Assembly (NCBI GenBank): GCA_039799085.1
Contig: JBDLTL010000001.1
Span: 1-57,645, forward strand
DNA from: Candidatus Parcubacteria bacterium
Lineage (GTDB): Bacteria; Patescibacteriota; Minisyncoccia; Phycocordibacterales; UBA918
Reading direction: 5' to 3'
DNA length: 57,645 nucleotides
A program made the position numbers and the translations under genes. A model generated the notes under the pieces. It made no database searches and had not been told where the DNA came from. It saw only the letters and a list, made by a program, of their open reading frames with translations. How positions within the stretch are numbered: the first letter of the stretch is position 1; every line of letters begins with the position of its first letter. Below, piece by piece: positions 223-57,645 of this stretch.

Positions 223-245
223 TGGCGGAAGTGACAGGATTCGAA
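223..245 (-). pseudogene. Orphan tRNA 3' fragment (T-loop, T-stem 3' strand, acceptor 3' strand, discriminator G, encoded CCA)
   Basis: Minus strand reads TTCGAAT-CCTGT-CACTTCC-G-CCA. No T-stem 5' strand (ACAGG) lies upstream. CACTTCC is the exact complement of GGAAGTG in the orphan 5' fragment at 547-572. Confidence 0.6.
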
Positions 246-369: not shown

Positions 370-426
370 GACCAATTTTTAGGGAGACCTTAAGTCGACC
401 ATAAAAATGGAAATGCTCTTGTGGTG
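370..426 (+). repeat. Family-B short repeat, copy B2 (57 nt)
   Basis: GACCAATTTTTAGGGAGACCTTAAGTCGACCATAAAAATGGAAATGCTCTTGTGGTG. The last 26 nt match B3 at 24/26 and B1 at 21/26 by hand alignment. Confidence 0.7.
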
Positions 427-432
427 CAAGCG

Positions 433-586: not shown

Positions 587-731
587 CGGAAAGGGCGGGA
601 TTTGCACCACAAGAGTATTTCCGAAATTATAGTCGATACAAGCTCTCCTTAATTTCTAGGTCAACCCGCGATAGAGTTTCCCCTATGCCGGTTTTCGAAA
701 CCGGTGCTTTCAACCACTCAGCCACCTTTCC
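587..731 (-). tRNA. tRNA-Ser(CGA) interrupted by a 58-nt insert in the T-loop (87 nt without the insert)
   Basis: GGAAAGG-TG-GCTGAGTGGTTGAAAGC-A-CCGGT-TTCGAAA-ACCGG-variable arm-GCGGG-TT-[58 nt]-CAAAT-CCCGC-CCTTTCC-G. All stems are perfect once 605-662 is removed. Confidence 0.75.
605..662 (-). mobile_element. Family-B element copy B1 (58 nt) inserted between T-loop positions 55 and 56 of tRNA-Ser(CGA)
   Basis: Minus strand GACCTAGAAATTAAGGAGAGCTTGTATCGACTATAATTTCGGAAATACTCTTGTGGTG. Homologous to 370-426 and 54902-54955. No target duplication at the junctions. Confidence 0.65.
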
Positions 732-4761: not shown

Positions 4762-4792
4762 GAAAGAGCGGCGCCTTCGGCGCCGCTCTTTC
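4762..4792 (-). terminator. Terminator of groEL
   Basis: gaaagagcggcgcc / ttcg / gcgccgctctttc, 20 nt beyond the groEL stop. Confidence 0.8.
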
Positions 4793-39917: not shown

Positions 39918-40004
39918 ACTGTAAGTATACCAAAAAGTTCCTCATCCCCGCCTCAACATCGATAAACACAGAAAAGCGCCATGAAGGCGCTTTTCTCTGG
40001 TTTG

Positions 40005-40150
40005 CTGCCCGACAAGGACTCGGTCACGAATCACTAAGTATATTTATTCGCTTCGCTCTAAATCTACCAAGTGTTCTCGACCCCGGCTCGCTGTTCGTCG
40101 CTCTAGGAAAGGAGCGACTCACAACGCTCCGCCTTTCTCGTCCTTTGTCA
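40005..40150 (-). repeat. Family-A repeat copy E2, including an 18-nt copy of the tRNA-Gln 3' end (40005-40022)
   Basis: ctgcccgacaaggactcg is 18/18 identical to 41160-41177. It is followed by gtcacgaatcactaagtatattt..., homologous to 40980 onward. Confidence 0.7.
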
Positions 40151-40156
40151 GATTGG

Positions 40157-40202
40157 GCGAGCAAAAGAAAAACACCCTCAAGGGTGCTTTTCTTTTGCTC
40201 GC
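40157..40202. repeat. Long hairpin with about 20 bp of pairing
   Basis: gcgagcaaaagaaaaacaccct / caa / gggtgcttttcttttgctcgc. Confidence 0.6.
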
Positions 40203-40296
40203 TGGCTGTATGGAATGAAGTTAGAACTTTTTTAAATGAAAAAGCCGCCGTTCCCTTTCGGTACTAGGCGGCTACTGAGACACTAAAGGGCGTTGA

Positions 40297-40893
40297 TCAT
40301 TTGGGTGCCTTCTCACCCATGAAGCGACGGCCGACCAGTTGACTATGCAGATTTTCCAGAATCTCCACACCTACTGATGATACGCCCTTGAGCGAAAGGT
40401 GCGGATTGTCCTTATCTCGTTGCACAGGGCTCGTCTCGAGAAATTTTCGCAGAGCATTGTATGCTTCTGTTTCGAGAAAACCCTGCTGGTCTGCCCCGTT
40501 TTCTTGAAGAGCAAAGTAGGGTCGGATTTCACCGAGAAGTTCCTTGAAGTCAGAATAGCCCTCCAACGCCCGAAACGGGTCTTCGATGTCGACCTCATCC
40601 ATCAAGGATTTTTCAAGAACCGCAATTCCGGTAAGCAGTGATGCGAGACTCGAGAAGTCAATATAGACCTTTCTAGGTGCAAACACGCAGATTAAGTCTG
40701 AAACTCGTCCGAGGGCGATCGCGGCCTGGCCTGCTTCGATAAGACGATAGTAGGTCGGCGAAACTCCTAGCGATTGAGCCATATACTCAGTTGAGAGTTT
40801 TACCGAATTTCTTCTTAGGCGCAGATAAGCACCGAGGAACTTCTGGAGCGGGTTTAGGGCTCCGTTCGGAGCATGTACTCTATTTCTTCCCAT
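40297..40893 (-). CDS. XRE-family helix-turn-helix protein with an unknown C-terminal domain
   Basis: LRLRRNSVKLSTEYMAQSLGVSPTYYRLIEAGQ is an HTH_XRE pattern. It has its own terminator (agccgcctagtaccgaaagggaacggcggcttttt on the minus strand) just after the stop. Confidence 0.8.
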   Translation of the reverse strand: MGRNRVHAPNGALNPLQKFLGAYLRLRRNSVKLSTEYMAQSLGVSPTYYRLIEAGQAAIALGRVSDLICVFAPRKVYIDFSSLASLLTGIAVLEKSLMDEVDIEDPFRALEGYSDFKELLGEIRPYFALQENGADQQGFLETEAYNALRKFLETSPVQRDKDNPHLSLKGVSSVGVEILENLHSQLVGRRFMGEKAPK

Positions 40894-40961
40894 TGTTTTT
40901 CCCCTTCAGGAATAATCTTCTATAAGGAGAATAGAATGAAAATAGGGTATTGTCAAATATA

Positions 40962-41113
40962 CTGCCCGACAGGGACTCGGTCACGAATCACTAAGTATAT
41001 TTGTTCACTACGTTCCAAATCTACTAAGTGTTCTCGACCCAGACTCGCCGACAAGCCCTCGCTACGCTCGTCTTGTATACCGGCTCCGTCTTTCGAGTCC
41101 CTGTCCGGCTAGC
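40962..41113 (-). repeat. Family-A repeat copy E1, bounded by a direct (40962-40979) and an inverted (41094-41113) copy of the tRNA-Gln 3' end
   Basis: ctgcccgacagggactcg is 17/18 identical to the tRNA end. cgagtccctgtccggctagc on the same strand is its near reverse complement. The core is homologous to E2, E3 and E4. Confidence 0.7.
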
Positions 41114-41122
41114 AACAGCAAA

Positions 41123-41150
41123 GGCCGCAGATGTATACACATCTGCGGCC
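41123..41150 (-). terminator. Terminator downstream of tRNA-Gln
   Basis: ggccgcagatgt / atac / acatctgcggcc. On the minus strand it is followed by tttgctgtt. Confidence 0.75.
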
Positions 41151-41159
41151 TGCTGATTG

Positions 41160-41230
41160 CTGCCCGACAAGGACTCGAACCTCGATAGACGGTACCAGAA
41201 ACCGTAGTCCTACCATTAGACGATCGGGCA
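41160..41230 (-). tRNA. tRNA-Gln(CTG)
   Basis: TGCCCGA-TC-GTCTAATGGTAGGAC-T-ACGGT-TTCTGGT-ACCGT-CTAT-CGAGG-TTCGAGT-CCTTG-TCGGGCA-G. The U1-A72 pair is typical of bacterial tRNA-Gln. Confidence 0.92.
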
Positions 41231-41234
41231 ATAT

Positions 41235-41372: not shown

Positions 41373-41478
41373 CATTAGACGATCGGGCAATATGTTGGGG
41401 CGACATTGCGAAGCTTTGTCGCCCAGTGGCAGTATAGTGCCAGAAACTAGAAAACTTTCAAGTACTCCTCTCCCCTCC

Positions 41479-43143: not shown

Positions 43144-43175
43144 AAAAGAGCGGCGCCGTAGGCGCCGCTCTTTTT
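43144..43175 (-). terminator. Terminator
   Basis: aaaagagcggcgcc / gta / ggcgccgctctttt. Confidence 0.85.
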
Positions 43176-54802: not shown

Positions 54803-54972
54803 ATGGGACTTGGTCACAAGTCACTCCTTTCAGTCGTGCTCGCGACCCCACCTCGCCGACAAGCCCTCGCTTCGTTCGTCTTGTGTACCGGCTCCGGCTT
54901 TGACCTAATTTTCAAGGAGTGAAACGACTATGAAAATGGAAATGCTCTTGTAGTGCAAGTCCCATCTCCAAC
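54803..54972. mobile_element. Composite: T-arm fragment (54803-54812), family-A copy E3 (54813-54901), nested family-B copy B3 (54902-54955), inverted tRNA-Leu 3'-end copy (54956-54972)
   Basis: atgggacttg and caagtcccat(ctccaac) are inverted and match the T-arm/acceptor of tRNA-Leu(CAA) at 55021-55046. B3 sits precisely at the junction that is uninterrupted in copy E1 (41093/41094). Confidence 0.65.
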
Positions 54973-54984
54973 TACAAAATACAA

Positions 54985-55012
54985 CGACCGCAAACTTGGC
55001 AGTTTGCGGTCG
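54985..55012 (-). terminator. Terminator downstream of tRNA-Leu
   Basis: cgaccgcaaact / tggc / agtttgcggtcg, with T-runs on both sides. Confidence 0.75.
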
Positions 55013-55020
55013 GTATTTTG

Positions 55021-56168: not shown

Positions 56169-56239
56169 GGGCCTATAGTTCAGTGGTAGAATGCCGGTCT
56201 CCAAAACCGTTGACCGAGGTTCGAATCCTCGTGGGCCCG
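56169..56239 (+). tRNA. tRNA-Trp(CCA)
   Basis: GGGCCTA-TA-GTTCAGTGGTAGAAT-G-CCGGT-CTCCAAA-ACCGT-TGAC-CGAGG-TTCGAAT-CCTCG-TGGGCCC-G. Confidence 0.92.
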
Positions 56240-56247
56240 CGAGTATC

Positions 56248-56274
56248 AAAAACAACCCATGTAGGGTTGTTTTT
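56248..56274 (+). terminator. Terminator after tRNA-Trp
   Basis: aaaaacaaccc / atgta / gggttgttttt. Confidence 0.8.
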
Positions 56275-56280
56275 GTTTGT

Positions 56281-56383
56281 GGGAGCAAGGGCTTGTCGGC
56301 GAGCTGAGGTCGAGGGTACTTAGAAAAATATGAGCGAAACGAAATATTTTACCTAGTAGCTCGTGACTGAATCCTCGTGGGCC
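56281..56383 (+). repeat. Family-A repeat copy E4 (left-truncated) ending in a 15-nt direct repeat of the tRNA-Trp 3' end (56369-56383 = 56223-56237)
   Basis: gggcttgtcggcgag..ggtcgag..acttag....cgtgac is the reverse-complement orientation of the E1-E3 core. It is followed by gaatcctcgtgggcc. Confidence 0.7.
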
Positions 56384-56393
56384 AGCAAAAATA

Positions 56394-56420
56394 AAACTCC
56401 TTTCGTTCCGAGAGGAGTTT
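56394..56420. terminator. Bidirectional terminator
   Basis: aaactccttt(c) / gttcc / (g)agaggagttt, with T-runs on both strands. Confidence 0.7.
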
Positions 56421-56427
56421 ATTTTGC

Positions 56428-57450
56428 TTAATTTGCAAACTTTGCCACACACGCTCTTTGCTTTGGGTGTGGTTCGCTGTCAGTCCCCAACCAAGCACGA
56501 TAGCCATTTTCTGTTTCATAAATACACAGTGCAGCAGCAACATTACACTGCTGGTTTGATGCCGCCGTTCTACACAAAGCAGCCTGAGCTTCCATTCCAG
56601 CTTTTGGCTTTCCTCCTGAATAGGCTTTTGAGCAGTTAAGATCTGTACTTGAATTTACAGCAGCCTTACACTGAGGAAGATTGAGGTTGTGACAACTGTT
56701 ATTGTAGCCAAATACGACCTGGAACATACCACTTGCAGAAGAGTTTGGATTAGGAGCAGGATTATTGTTACAGGTACTCTCCGCTTCAGCAATGCAAGAA
56801 AATACATTTGCTTGTGTAGCATTCATACCCATCGACTGAAGCTTTGCTGGACTACAATCAGCCTTTGTTGAAACACCAGCCGCACCAACCAGAGCTGGAT
56901 CCACTGGACCTAGGGATTCAAGCATTTGTGCCGCAGTAAATACAGGGTCTGCATCAAAAAAGTTTGGCTCAATCTTTGAGCTCGCCTGTTCAGTACACCT
57001 CACCTTCGTCCACGGACCCCAGCCATCAATCTCTCCACTTCCACCCTTCAATAACGTATGGAGCAATGTATCAATTAAGAGCCACGCACAAAGGAAGATA
57101 ATGAGTCCAATGAATGCATTAGTGAAACTCTGTTTGGCTGCCTGGAGAGCACCAGGATTGCCTTCTGTGACAAGCTTGAAGCCAGCTCGGACCGCCAAGA
57201 TCGCGAAGAAGAGGAAAGCCATGCCAAAAAGCCACTTGATGATGGTGTTGGCCATCACCATGAAGTCACAGAGGTCGCAGGTGATACCGGAGCATGGGAC
57301 GAAGCCTTTCCCTTGAATAACCCCTTCTCCGCTGATAGTAGGGTCTTTGAAAGAGTCGGCGATTTGGGATTGAGCAAAACTCGCCGAAACAGAATAAAAG
57401 AAGAAAAAAACGAAAGTAAAGATTAATGCTGCAGCTGTCTTTTTAAACAT
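56428..57450 (-). CDS. T4SS-pilin-like (TrbC/VirB2-type) N-terminal domain fused to a Cys-rich, possibly lysozyme-like C-terminal domain
   Basis: Signal peptide MFKKTAAALIFTFVFFFFYSVSASFA. LVTEGNPGALQAAKQSFTNAFIGLIIFLCAWLLI matches the two-TM ..GNP....AK pilin pattern seen in CPR genomes. The C-terminal AEAES...SGMFQV resembles SLT E-S / G-L-M-Q motifs. Confidence 0.65.
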   Translation of the reverse strand: MFKKTAAALIFTFVFFFFYSVSASFAQSQIADSFKDPTISGEGVIQGKGFVPCSGITCDLCDFMVMANTIIKWLFGMAFLFFAILAVRAGFKLVTEGNPGALQAAKQSFTNAFIGLIIFLCAWLLIDTLLHTLLKGGSGEIDGWGPWTKVRCTEQASSKIEPNFFDADPVFTAAQMLESLGPVDPALVGAAGVSTKADCSPAKLQSMGMNATQANVFSCIAEAESTCNNNPAPNPNSSASGMFQVVFGYNNSCHNLNLPQCKAAVNSSTDLNCSKAYSGGKPKAGMEAQAALCRTAASNQQCNVAAALCIYETENGYRAWLGTDSEPHPKQRACVAKFAN

Positions 57451-57457
57451 AATATCT

Positions 57458-57645
57458 CTATCTTGCACCACCCATATCACAGTGAATGTGATTTGCCCCT
57501 CGCTCATCATTAATAAAAGTAAACCCTGCCGACCGACACAATTGAATGATTTGATCGTAGTTAGCACCGCCCGAAACCGGCTGCAAGTCAACCGCCGTTC
57601 CTACATAATGCTGACTATTCGCACTATGCCCAACACCTTCTGTGT
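57458..57645 (-). CDS. LAS-type zinc peptidase (M15, VanY / D-Ala-D-Ala carboxypeptidase-like), C-terminal part only
   Basis: Hand translation ..SQHYVGTAVDLQP...ANHIHCDMGGAR*. This gives H-x6-D and H-x-H zinc ligands. The gene continues beyond the window. Confidence 0.6.
   Translation of the reverse strand, partial: TEGVGHSANSQHYVGTAVDLQPVSGGANYDQIIQLCRSAGFTFINDERGANHIHCDMGGAR

Follow-up and report, generated by a model that had tools for sequence, protein, structure and literature searches.

Short Structured DNA Units behind tRNA Genes of Patescibacteria, with a Truncated Copy at tRNA-Trp

1. Introduction

The textbook signature of integration into a tRNA gene is a restored tRNA together with a direct repeat of its part between the T-loop and the 3' end; tandem accretion of integrative elements at such genes is also known. 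The units described here, which lie behind tRNA genes of Patescibacteria, resemble these elements in the direct repeat that begins in the T-loop and extends slightly beyond the tRNA 3' end, the displaced 3' end left as a relic, the new 3' end that keeps the tRNA intact, the tandem accretion, and the empty sites in relatives. They differ in being 130–200 nt long without an integrase or other gene, in having a covarying structured core, an extra inverted tRNA copy, and their own terminator, and in covering as a family at least 13 tRNA identities.

With the integron attC site the units share the order of target-site hybrid, cargo, inverted half-site, structured spacer, and direct half-site, as well as an imperfect inverted repeat folding to a hairpin, in which the structure is kept while the sequence varies. 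As in integron cassettes, diverse units form arrays at one fixed site, are empty or carry a small ORF, would be moved in trans, and fold preferentially on one strand. Unlike attC, however, they have no R-box (RYYYAAC/GTTRRRY), their junctions being GTGAC joined to C(56) and ...GGAGCCG... with tRNA-derived stems; the target tRNA is the source of the paired stem, and the spacer is a conserved three-way junction instead of a variable loop. No IntI, attI, or Pc platform stands at the array heads, where the tRNA gene takes the place of “attI”.

In the phage CTXphi about 90 bp separate two target-like sites of opposite orientation, and once the phage has integrated, one copy is functional and two are not (PMC3089051). 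The units are similar to such IMEX in the opposed target-like sites 90–110 nt apart with a predicted forked hairpin that mimics the double-stranded target, in one functional target accompanied by two dead copies, in tandem arrays, and in an enzyme that is not encoded by the element (PMC3089051). They differ in the target, which is the tRNA T-loop or 3' end and not dif used via host XerCD, and in size, being modules of 0.2–1 kb in contrast to a 7-kb phage.

Like CIMEs and MITEs, the units are short, non-coding, and multi-copy, depend on an enzyme from elsewhere, and formally possess terminal inverted repeats. Unlike those of MITEs, these inverted repeats are copies of the local tRNA that differ between unit copies and are not transposase-binding ends; there is no target-site duplication of fixed length (the repeat measures 4–25 nt), and the association with tRNA genes is strict. 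We know of no parent element for the units. Single-strand initiation signals are, to our knowledge, not described as chromosomal modules at tRNA genes. They share with the units a GCGNAGC mini-hairpin on one strand at a hairpin apex, as in the phage G4 origin and RSF1010 ssiA (PMC13037366), although no replicon is attached to the units. General analogues apart, no described equivalent was found in the literature.

2. The tRNA-Trp Locus

The analysed DNA, referred to below as the window, is a whole 57.6-kb stretch (57,645 nt) of a Candidatus Parcubacteria contig. The 15-nt sequence GAATCCTCGTGGGCC occurs in it exactly twice, both times on the plus strand, once as the 3' end of tRNA-Trp and once downstream (Table 1), just where a previous sequence-only reading of this DNA had placed the repeat; past the 15 nt a weak similarity between the copies goes on (GGGCC[C/A]GC[G/A]A). 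When up to two mismatches were allowed, shuffled sequences gave 0.09 matches on average, and two matches were reached in 2 of 100 shuffles, which leaves a little room for an origin without any element, be it a chance repeat, slippage at the 3' end of tRNA-Trp, or a local segmental duplication there. Such an origin is hardly credible, because the same architecture is seen at three other window positions and at about 30 independent loci with other tRNAs, and because the bracketed DNA belongs to a conserved family and is not duplicated local sequence.

Table 1: Positions of the features at the tRNA-Gln, tRNA-Leu, and tRNA-Trp loci of the window.
Feature	Position	Strand	Basis or remark
Outer, second unit of tRNA-Gln array	40002–40961	-	957-nt period
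Full-length family-A unit behind tRNA-Gln (reference unit)	40962–41158	-	
Reference unit, S_c	40962–40979		
Reference unit, P2	40980–41039		
Reference unit, core	41044–41093		
Reference unit, S_b	41094–41109		
Reference unit, H	~41112–41158		
Family-A unit behind tRNA-Leu(CAA)	54803–55019	-	S_c degenerate
Leu unit, S_c	54803–54812		
Leu unit, P2	54813–54847		
Leu unit, core	54852–54901		
Leu unit, family-B element	54902–54955		
Leu unit, S_b	54956–54972		Followed by H
tRNA-Trp(CCA), intact	56169–56240	+	ARAGORN 56169–56240; Rfam tRNA 56169–56239, 68 bits
Direct-repeat copy 1 (S_a)	56223–56237	+	T-loop G57 to acceptor 3' strand of tRNA-Trp
Trailer CGAG, hairpin H, and T-rich tract	56241–56279	+	H stem 56248–56258 / 56264–56274; sequence reading
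Family-A core, 5' half (CTCGCCGACAAGCCCTTGCT)	56284–56303	-	Reverse complement of core, 1 mismatch
Hairpin P2 (type 3; CTTAG / CTAG arms), 60 nt	56308–56367	+	Sequence reading; ends CTCGTGAC
Direct-repeat copy 2 (S_c)	56369–56383	+	Next base C>A
Second terminator hairpin (AAAACTCCTYTC...GAGAGGAGTTT)	56384–56427	+	Sequence reading

The tRNA-Trp sequence is the same in the related loci L026, L066, L067, and L071 and differs by one base in L069. Its present 3' end and the trailer were probably supplied by the inserted unit, and the downstream repeat copy is a relic, the displaced original tRNA-Trp 3' end.

The two copies enclose 131 nt (56238–56368), the length reported earlier together with a terminator, and a terminator-like hairpin followed by a T-rich tract is indeed present at 56248–56274. 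The ORFs overlapping this segment are short only (58–68 aa), the space being filled by hairpins and core, and there is no plausible gene within it. Beside tRNA-Trp a CGCGAG trailer is common only to the family-A units at tRNA-Trp in L010 and L056 and is missing at the unit-free sites in L066, L071, and L024; hence hairpin H is a terminator for tRNA-Trp that arrived with the unit. The second terminator, behind the distal repeat, is probably the original one of tRNA-Trp, shared with the convergent gene at 56428–57591 on the minus strand; at the empty sites of L066 and L071 a CAC..ATAAAAC trailer and a terminator occupy the place matching 56384–56427.

In full units the parts follow each other in the tRNA direction as S_a, the terminator hairpin H, S_b', the core hairpin P3, P2, and S_c, where S_b' is an inverted copy of the tRNA 3' end, P3 holds a near-invariant 50-nt core, P2 is a variable hairpin with a GTGAC end, and S_c is a direct copy from T-loop C56. 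The core at tRNA-Trp had been described as truncated, and alignment with full units bears this out: about 50 nt are missing between 56283 and 56284, namely, the 3' half of the core (half of P3), the inverted tRNA copy S_b', and the linker. After this loss the Trp copy is probably dead or immobile, and, as an inactive relic, it would be of little importance alone. Its 60-nt hairpin ends ...TAGCTCGTGAC (GTGAC), followed by a t (56368) and then by the second repeat copy.

3. Sister Units in the Window

All four P2-bearing units of the window (4/4) stand at tRNAs, and none was found elsewhere in the 57 kb. The GTCACGA end lies in the orientation opposite to Trp at 40980, directly after the tRNA-Gln 3'-end copy (40962–40979), and again, as GTCACAAG, at 54813, directly after the degenerate tRNA-Leu copy (54803–54812); together with its occurrence before 56369 this agrees with the claim that one conserved end abuts the Gln, Leu, and Trp copies. 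The further claim of one family at these three tRNAs, with the duplicated segment matching the local tRNA in each case, stands as well and extends to at least 13 identities.

Behind tRNA-Gln the units form an array, whose outer member has the same P2 hairpin (40023–40082) as the inner one, together with another core, its own hairpin (40157–40202), a cargo ORF with an HTH domain (40297–40893, minus strand), and the outermost tRNA-Gln 3'-end copy (40002–40022). The internal inverted copy of this array agrees at one variable position with the distal repeat and not with the tRNA, a point against the mechanism proposed below, which would then need a crossover 3' of that position. In the unit behind tRNA-Leu a 54-nt family-B element is inserted within the T-loop of the inverted copy S_b.

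4. Fold of the Units

In units across loci S_b always starts 28 nt after the core, the junction lies between T-loop positions 55 and 56 in most units, and the repeat measures 4–25 nt. S and S', about 110 nt apart, are mutually complementary, with 92% of P1 cells paired, and since they pair with each other, the unit is predicted to be an almost fully self-complementary structure with three arms. The RNAalifold consensus of the aligned units is accordingly a three-way junction, in which 94.6% of the cells are paired, in comparison with 77% in shuffles and 32–47% in slid controls. Double changes were found in 20 of the 35 consensus pairs, the P2 helix covaries across the family, and the 3-bp closing helix of P3 occurs as ACC/GGT, GAC/GTC, AAC/GTT, GGC/GCC, GTC/GAC, and AGC/GCT, with GCC/GGC in L049 as well. 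Folded as single-stranded DNA, the Gln unit reaches -65.5 kcal/mol (z = -10.4). Neither the inverted copy nor the three-way-junction fold had been recognised in the sequence-only reading, nor that the terminator came with the element.

With RNA parameters, the tRNA-sense strand outfolds the complementary strand in 32 of 33 units, and with DNA parameters it does so in all 33. Wobble and mismatch counts of the consensus helices are equal for both strands; thus the preference rests on the loops and on a mini-hairpin motif. This motif, GCGNAGC, forms the P3 apex on the tRNA-sense strand in 26 of the 33 units, with all four bases at N, and never occurs there on the complement. It is characterized as an extraordinarily stable DNA mini-hairpin, much weaker as RNA, which occurs at single-strand priming sites (PMC13037366).

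A three-way junction that is conserved and covaries, a core that is near-invariant across Patescibacteria classes, and better folding of the tRNA-sense strand could also be expected of a functional non-coding RNA gene or cis-regulatory RNA module, co-transcribed with the tRNA or convergent to it, which might act as a tRNA-like minihelix RNA or as a processing or termination device. Its spread would then be due to carriage as cargo or to gene conversion, and the repeats would be needed for the RNA to pair with the tRNA end or to imitate it; the S'/S stem does correspond to the acceptor plus T-stem stack of the adjoining tRNA. P2 and core sequences were moreover found in contigs of metatranscriptome libraries at a depth comparable to or above that of the tRNA, but these contigs are at least 500 nt long and could be DNA carry-over. 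An RNA role is nevertheless improbable in our estimation: the helices have no excess of G.U over A.C pairs on either strand, the apical GCGNAGC is stable as DNA and not as RNA, a terminator separates tRNA and unit when read in the sense direction, a conserved promoter is missing, and no Rfam family matches. Two further facts against it, the patchy occupancy of the site and the short stems of some related units, are given in the next section.

5. Insertion Polymorphism among Relatives

The loci of relatives with the MiaA-tRNA-Trp arrangement were compared, their MiaA being 84–87% identical. In L066 and L071 the site is empty, MiaA and tRNA-Trp being directly followed by trailer, terminator, and convergent gene, while L026 and L067–L069 hold other units or arrays, including an array of four diverse units. 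The distal flank of the window's Trp unit (after 56383) resembles the trailers of the empty sites; the gene downstream of these sites showed no detectable homology to that of the window, and orthology therefore covers the left flank (MiaA and tRNA) only. Because the site beside the same left flank is empty in some relatives and otherwise occupied in others, comparison of these sequences supports the view of the Trp segment as an insertion and not a fixed structural module, as had been proposed; L066 and L071 provide the empty sites, with orthology at the left flank. For an RNA module it is unfavourable that the site of close relatives is empty or differently occupied and that many tRNAs carry no unit.

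The proposal that the process is directed to the T-loop stood in part: it fits the 55/56 junction of most units, but in L067 and L069 tRNA-Trp is followed by related units whose junction is at its extreme 3' terminus (GTGAC joined to CGCAG) and whose repeat spans only 4–6 nt, and the T-loop is not obligatory as the junction. The P1 stem of these related units has just 4–5 bp and no tRNA mimicry, which also speaks against an RNA that imitates the tRNA end.

In assembled contigs of the source metagenomes, which drop rare variants, a search for an excised or empty variant gave the filled form only, and an exact-protein look-up of MiaA returned the same strain only.

6. Distribution of the Family

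Contigs that contain the 20-mer core number 14 from Patescibacteria genomes and 26 from metagenomes, and most of them have a convergent tRNA about 110 nt off, with at least 13 tRNA identities covered. In total about 30 distinct Patescibacteria loci have the same module, whose minimal format is 130–200 nt; the core is near-invariant across classes, arrays are found in L024, at the tRNA-Gln of the window, and in L067, and many tRNAs carry no unit. The 20-mer also gave 23 matches in high-GC genomes (Streptomyces, Paraburkholderia, and others), and these were discarded as unrelated, apparently coding, high-GC sequence.

The core and two P2 motifs had no match in 2.9 million viral contigs, and the full Gln unit gave no BLAST match among 50,697 phage or 72,556 plasmid records. 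Rfam 15 at the gathering threshold found only tRNAs in the whole window, and at E ≤ 10 nothing credible over the Gln unit.

The “relaxed core specificity” suggested earlier is not supported, as each full unit holds its own inverted copy of the 3' end of the same tRNA. According to this matched copy and to the trailer shared by the Trp units, the family resembles a set of numerous lineages with one matching tRNA each and not a single promiscuous element.

Several other candidates were considered and rejected: priming by tRNA at a primer-binding site of retroviral type (the copies have no TGG/CCA), a hammerhead or other known ribozyme core (consensus sequence absent), IS91 GTTC targeting or IS200/IS605 ends (the junction lies between TT and C, and there is no HUH gene), and a peptide-coding core (1-nt indels between copies).

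7. Search for a Linked Enzyme or Cargo

A Pfam scan of 40 ORFs of the window detected no integrase, transposase, or reverse transcriptase, and no protein family recurred near the units when 178 ORFs close to them in the other loci were compared all against all by BLAST; the units are therefore non-autonomous. The neighbours at array heads are MiaA, ParB, histidine phosphatase, and DnaX, and the arrays begin at tRNA genes. Larger cargo is met in the same position as the HTH ORF of the window's Gln array and as DGR cassettes or a TIR-like gene in L056, L059, and L057.

This cargo, together with the T-loop-to-3'-end direct repeat with restored tRNA at Trp and the accretion at tRNA genes familiar from integrative elements, would suit an integrase acting on double-stranded DNA, the segment being then a CIME-like deletion remnant (attL and attR) of a larger tRNA-targeting island or prophage, with core and hairpins as arm-type protein-binding sites of attP. 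We consider such an origin unlikely, since about 30 independent copies in the minimal 130–200-nt format have no integrase in them or nearby, the core is absent from the viral contigs, and the Gln unit is unmatched in the phage and plasmid collections. Covarying helices with diverging sequence are not expected of arm-type sites either, and a double-stranded attP has no use for the extra inverted tRNA copy.

DGR reverse transcriptases lie 2–3 kb from units in L056 and L059, and the repeat is of variable length, 9–25 nt; when parsed from trailer to S_c, the units begin and end where tRNA 3' ends are processed, after the discriminator. These facts recall a SINE-like retro-insertion, in which a processed transcript that starts where the tRNA 3' end is cleaved and stops at the following tRNA-like 3' end would be reverse-transcribed in trans and inserted behind the tRNA gene. 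However, the unit ends have no CCA or A-tail, no reverse transcriptase was seen in the scanned window ORFs or recurrently near units, the insertion site is non-random and always the cognate tRNA, and the DGR links concern two loci with a larger island that interrupts the tRNA; the DGR reverse transcriptases are best read as cargo of these islands. Retro-insertion is accordingly very improbable.

8. Proposed Mechanism

The explanation towards which we lean, by analogy with integron attC and the folded attP of CTXphi, is the insertion of the unit as folded single-stranded DNA by a recombinase acting in trans, with a stem that mimics the tRNA end. The moving strand would be the tRNA-sense strand, at which its better folding and its one-sided GCGNAGC apex hint indirectly; its S/S' stem would imitate the double-stranded end of the tRNA gene, and a putative recombinase encoded elsewhere would join the folded unit to this gene. 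The repeat, the polymorphism of the insertion in relatives, the family with its fold, and the lack of a linked enzyme gene are observed, whereas we infer that the intermediate is single-stranded, which kind of recombinase acts, and where exactly the crossover falls. With the unit would have come a new 3' end for the tRNA, the short CGAG trailer, and a terminator hairpin belonging to the unit, so that the tRNA is predicted to have stayed intact and expressed, while the original tRNA-Trp 3' end would have been pushed 146 nt downstream to its present place just ahead of the original terminator. Tandem arrays may be built by repeated insertion, and the Trp copy would later have lost its approximately 50 nt with half of P3 and S_b'.

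9. Conclusions

As a tentative and rather doubtful generalization, Patescibacteria (CPR), a very large group that is poorly understood, may harbour an unrecognised class of protein-less mobile DNA: three-armed cassettes of 0.13–1 kb, base-paired over almost their full length, that, as single-stranded DNA circles, would dock at tRNA 3' ends with a tRNA-end hairpin as the attachment site, be moved by a host recombinase, bring in terminators, small regulators, or defence genes, and form arrays behind tRNA genes. The 50-nt near-invariant core with the GCGNAGC mini-hairpin is a searchable and testable motif, and the comparison of unit presence with candidate recombinase genes across genomes would offer a route to the recombinase. 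The class would explain the long, repeat-rich, hard-to-assemble intergenic regions around CPR tRNA genes, as well as the partial tRNA copies and interrupted tRNAs that confuse CPR tRNA annotation. If true, it would represent a new format of site-specific mobile DNA with integron- and CTXphi-like logic but another target and other sequence rules, and the tRNA genes of CPR would be docking sites for tiny structured DNA modules without an enzyme of their own.

Repeat and insert at the tRNA-Trp gene

The window contains exactly two copies of the 15-mer GAATCCTCGTGGGCC, the first of which spans T-loop G57 to the acceptor strand and is part of the tRNA-Trp gene itself. The sequence-only reading had described this repeat and the segment between its copies, and the description was right on all points, including a truncated core: in the alignment the Trp copy is ~50 nt shorter than complete units of family A, the units with a conserved core at tRNA genes. 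GTCAC-type ends also adjoin partial copies of tRNA-Gln and tRNA-Leu. The Trp repeat is real and marks an old insertion, after which the unit lost its ~50 nt; it is now probably inert. Downstream lies a convergent gene for a Cys-rich protein of 387 aa with a T4SS_pilin domain (PF18895); the C-terminal half of this protein is poorly conserved among relatives.

Features of the window at and around tRNA genes
Feature	Position	Strand	Remark
tRNA-Trp(CCA)	56169-56240		ARAGORN; Rfam score 68 bits; contains first 15-mer copy
First 15-mer copy	56223-56237	+	
Segment between 15-mer copies	56238-56368		131 nt
Hairpin with T-rich tail	56248-56279		within the 131-nt segment
20-mer CTCGCCGACAAGCCCTCGCT	56284-56303		within the 131-nt segment; reverse complement, 1 mismatch
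60-nt hairpin	56308-56367		ends CTCGTGAC, 1 base ahead of second 15-mer copy
Second 15-mer copy	56369-56383	+	
T4SS_pilin-domain gene	56428-57591	-	convergent
tRNA-Gln partial copy	40962-40979		then GTCACGA
tRNA-Leu partial copy	54803-54812		then GTCACAAG
Unit behind tRNA-Gln	40962-41158		intact
tRNA-Gln 3'-end copies	40002, 40959, 41157		
Cargo ORF of outer Gln unit	40297-40893	-	198 aa
tRNA-Gln 5'-end duplicates	41213-41234, 41374-41395		4 nt upstream + first 18 nt
tRNA-Ser(CGA)	587-731	-	interrupted
Insert in tRNA-Ser(CGA)	605-662		58 nt, family B
Family-B copy	379-429	+	downstream of tRNA-Ser(GGA)
Family-B copy	54902-54955	+	T-loop (TT/C) of inverted tRNA-Leu copy within family-A unit
Relic antisense copy of tRNA-Ser-like 3' end	224-245		GGCGGAAGTGACAGGATTCGAA; after terminator
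Third element type	246-~370		starts CTTACAGTTTCAGTAC
Palindromic hairpin pair	4763-4791, 43145-43173		29 nt each

Empty and filled sites in relatives

Loci of relatives were fetched via MiaA homologues (84-87% identity). In L066 and L071, directly after an identical tRNA-Trp, come a trailer (CAC..ATAAAAC), a terminator, and then a convergent gene. These are empty sites, in other species-level lineages and with orthology demonstrable for the left flank only; the outcome that would have spoken against an insertion, absence of an empty site from all relatives, did not arise. At these sites a gene with no detectable homology takes the place of the T4SS_pilin-domain gene. Contigs of the source metagenome showed the filled Trp form only.

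Other relatives carry different inserts. L026 retains the flanks on both sides, MiaA on one and a homologue of the pilin-like gene on the other, and has a unit with the P2 type of the window, a different core, and no distal repeat, while in L069 a unit of the L026 type is followed by another element and then by a distal copy CGAATCCTCGTGGGCCCG ~420 nt downstream. L067 and L068 contain an array of four mutually diverse units ending GTGAC, followed by CGCAG, CGCTG, CGCAG, and CGCAA, respectively. In L067 this array lies behind tRNA-Trp at 1900-2375, with units of ~115-150 nt in the frame GCGGG...GTGAC/CGC.., which leaves a paired stem of only 4-5 bp and puts the junction at the very 3' end of the tRNA, not in the T-loop.

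The trailer CGCGAG of the window tRNA-Trp is common to family-A units at tRNA-Trp in L010 and L056 and is not present at the unit-free sites in L066, L071, and L024, the trailers of which are instead resembled by the sequence after the distal copy of the window (G CAAAAATAAAAC and a hairpin). The simplest reading of these sequences is that the present 3' end, trailer, and terminator of tRNA-Trp were supplied by the unit and that the second 15-mer copy is the displaced original 3' end of the gene.

Anatomy and distribution of the family

Read in the direction of the tRNA, a complete unit consists of the tRNA 3' end (S_a), a few trailer bases, a long hairpin (H) resembling the terminator of the tRNA, the same 3' end in inverted form (S_b'), a core of ~50 nt with hardly any variation, a variable hairpin (P2) with GTGAC at its end, and the tRNA 3' end once more, in direct orientation from T-loop C56 (S_c). 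The inverted copy had been missed by the sequence-only reading, which saw the direct repeat. In most units the repeat starts at C56 and ends 0-4 nt beyond the discriminator; in some it covers only 9-13 nt.

Tandem arrays were found in L024, in L067, and at tRNA-Gln of the window, where three 3'-end copies indicate a two-unit array. The outer Gln unit has a 957-nt period, the same P2 as the inner unit, and a different core; its cargo ORF, placed between two of the tRNA-Gln 3'-end copies, encodes an HTH_3/HTH_31 domain at the N terminus, the C-terminal half being uncharacterised. At one C/T variant the internal inverted copy of the array agrees with the distal repeat and not with the tRNA, so that the exchange must have taken place 3' of that position unless the copies were converted later. 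In the Leu unit the T-loop of the inverted copy is the exact insertion site of an extra 54-nt element.

Scanning one genome per species, the 20-mer core matched 14 Patescibacteria contigs (Paceibacteria, Saccharibacteria, Kaiserbacteria, Nomurabacteria, and Parcubacteria), and a stricter two-part pattern matched 26 metagenome contigs. All low-GC matches have one common architecture, in which the inverted copy begins exactly 28 nt past the core and, in most, a convergent tRNA lies ~110 nt past it. Matches in high-GC genomes were due to chance, the sequence being unrelated and apparently coding. Units occur at tRNA-Leu (three anticodons), Trp, Val, Gly (two), Ser (two), Phe, Tyr, Glu, Arg, His, and Gln, and the adjoining tRNA is always the source of both copies, inverted and direct. 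When the fetched loci were searched with regular expressions for the four P2 types, 37 units were found, in all of which P2 is directly followed by C56... of the local tRNA (CGCAG instead in one lineage); in the window there are only four P2 units, every one at a tRNA. Trp units of different genomes have P2 type 3, 2, or 4, that is, modular mosaicism. Of 51 tRNAs in the fetched CPR loci, 21 were followed within 1.5 kb downstream by a direct 3'-end copy and 15 by an inverted one, so unit occupancy is frequent and not universal. No match to the family was found in Rfam, in phage and plasmid records, or in viral contigs.

Fold and strand preference

The RNAalifold consensus of 26 distinct units (alignment A1) shows three helices around a junction: P1, in which S' is paired with S; P2, the GTCAC hairpin; and P3, the core, closed by a 3-bp helix. 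Paired cells amount to 94.6% compared with 77% in column shuffles, none of 500 shuffles reaching the observed value, and to 32-47% with slid partners; the covariation score is 0.46 (controls about 0.1), with double changes in 20 of 35 pairs. The covariation of P1 is partly trivial, because both its arms are copied from a tRNA, but that of P2 and P3 is not. The P3 closing helix appears as ACC/GGT, GAC/GTC, AAC/GTT, GGC/GCC, GTC/GAC, and AGC/GCT in A1 and as GCC/GGC in L049 outside it, and the inner P3 stem is invariant within this subfamily; in unit 2 of the L067 array the apical sequence is unchanged but sits on another stem. Folded as tRNA-sense single-stranded DNA from the tRNA-Gln T-loop to the distal copy, the Gln unit forms a long S_a:S_b' hairpin into H, then P3 and P2 (-65.5 kcal/mol, z = -10.4), and is thus almost wholly self-complementary.

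Compared with its complement, the tRNA-sense strand gives the more stable fold in 32 of 33 units under RNA parameters and in all 33 under DNA parameters. G.T and A.C are equally numerous in the consensus helices, which is unusual for a structure selected purely as RNA. At the P3 apex, 26/33 units have GCGNAGC on the tRNA-sense strand (N being A in 12, G in 11, T in 2, and C in 1) and one further unit has GCGAAAGC; the motif is absent from the opposite strand, and related units likewise carry such motifs on the tRNA-sense strand only. GCGNAGC and GCGNNAGC are described as "extraordinarily stable DNA mini-hairpins" with Tm of 70-76 C for all four N and far less stable RNA counterparts, and they are known at single-strand priming sites, e.g., the phage G4 origin, with a related CCGAAGG mini-hairpin in RSF1010 ssiA (PMC13037366). 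P2- and core-like sequences are also present in contigs from RNA libraries (wastewater, soil); these contigs are long and could stem from DNA carry-over. A role of the unit at the DNA level, in single-stranded form, is modestly preferred over an RNA role.

Other elements at tRNA genes

The insert of tRNA-Ser(CGA) lies exactly between T-loop T55 and C56, and the interrupted gene scores 43 bits as tRNA in Rfam and is not called by ARAGORN. This insert belongs to the second small insert family, family B (GACCTA..AATTTTCAAGGAG..GGAAATGCTCTTGTRGTG, then C56), which has relatives in three other Patescibacteria loci (L008, L044, and L056). The third element type also flanks T-arm copies in L019, L060, and L003.

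The duplicated 5' end of tRNA-Gln brackets a 139-nt segment of another repeat type, which indicates that tRNA genes take insertions on the 5' side too. Insertion polymorphism on the 5' side of tRNA-Trp is seen in L069, L070, and between L067 and L068, which have the same MiaA protein. The duplicated block of L067 comprises 23 nt of leader and tRNA bases 1-32, the D-loop of the upstream duplicate is broken by a ~80-nt element, and the insert brings an extended -10-like box (TGTGGTATATA); L068 is without the insertion.

Near family-A units in L056 (+2.0 kb) and L059 (+2.5-3.4 kb), where the adjacent tRNA is truncated, there are diversity-generating retroelement (DGR) cassettes: both loci have a DGR-type reverse transcriptase, L059 also has an Avd-like protein, and L056 has a variable protein and a template-repeat-like reading. 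Probably they are larger islands that integrated at the tRNA in question. The near-identical pair of palindromic GC-rich hairpins (AAAGAGCGGCGCC..GGCGCCGCTCTTT), 38 kb apart in the window, is probably a shared bidirectional terminator type.

Relation to known systems and possible mechanism

The units are associated site-specifically with the 3' end of the cognate tRNA gene, and insertion polymorphism is seen among relatives. The Trp locus has the repeat and the empty site of a tRNA-targeting integrative element, but not the integrase: the scan of 40 window ORFs turned up no recombinase, transposase, or reverse transcriptase, and around units at other loci no protein family is seen repeatedly. 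The unit is not a MITE in the usual sense, described RNA families gave no match, and no account of such tRNA-linked modules in CPR bacteria was found in the literature.

We infer a topology of functional target copy, cargo, inverted target copy, ~110 nt structure, and direct target copy, which integron cassettes and CTXphi also have once integrated. With integron cassettes the units share structure and arrays, but R-box and IntI/attI are lacking; with CTXphi-type elements they share the inverted sites, but the target differs. CTXphi has two dif-like sites in opposite orientation about 90 bp apart, which in the single-stranded genome fold into a forked hairpin serving as the attachment site, and its integration results in one functional and two non-functional sites (PMC3089051; see also PMC4792948 and PMC3442271). 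From the common topology folded single-strand integration is proposed: the unit would enter the tRNA gene as a single strand in folded form, its S/S' stem imitating the end of that gene; the recombinase acting on it would be encoded elsewhere, and replication would follow. The conserved P2 and P3 arms would be the protein-recognition or priming determinants.

The interest of the Trp repeat is the family behind it, which may, though this is less likely than not, be a distinct class of single-stranded cassette, and which is classed here as site-specific, non-autonomous integrative DNA.
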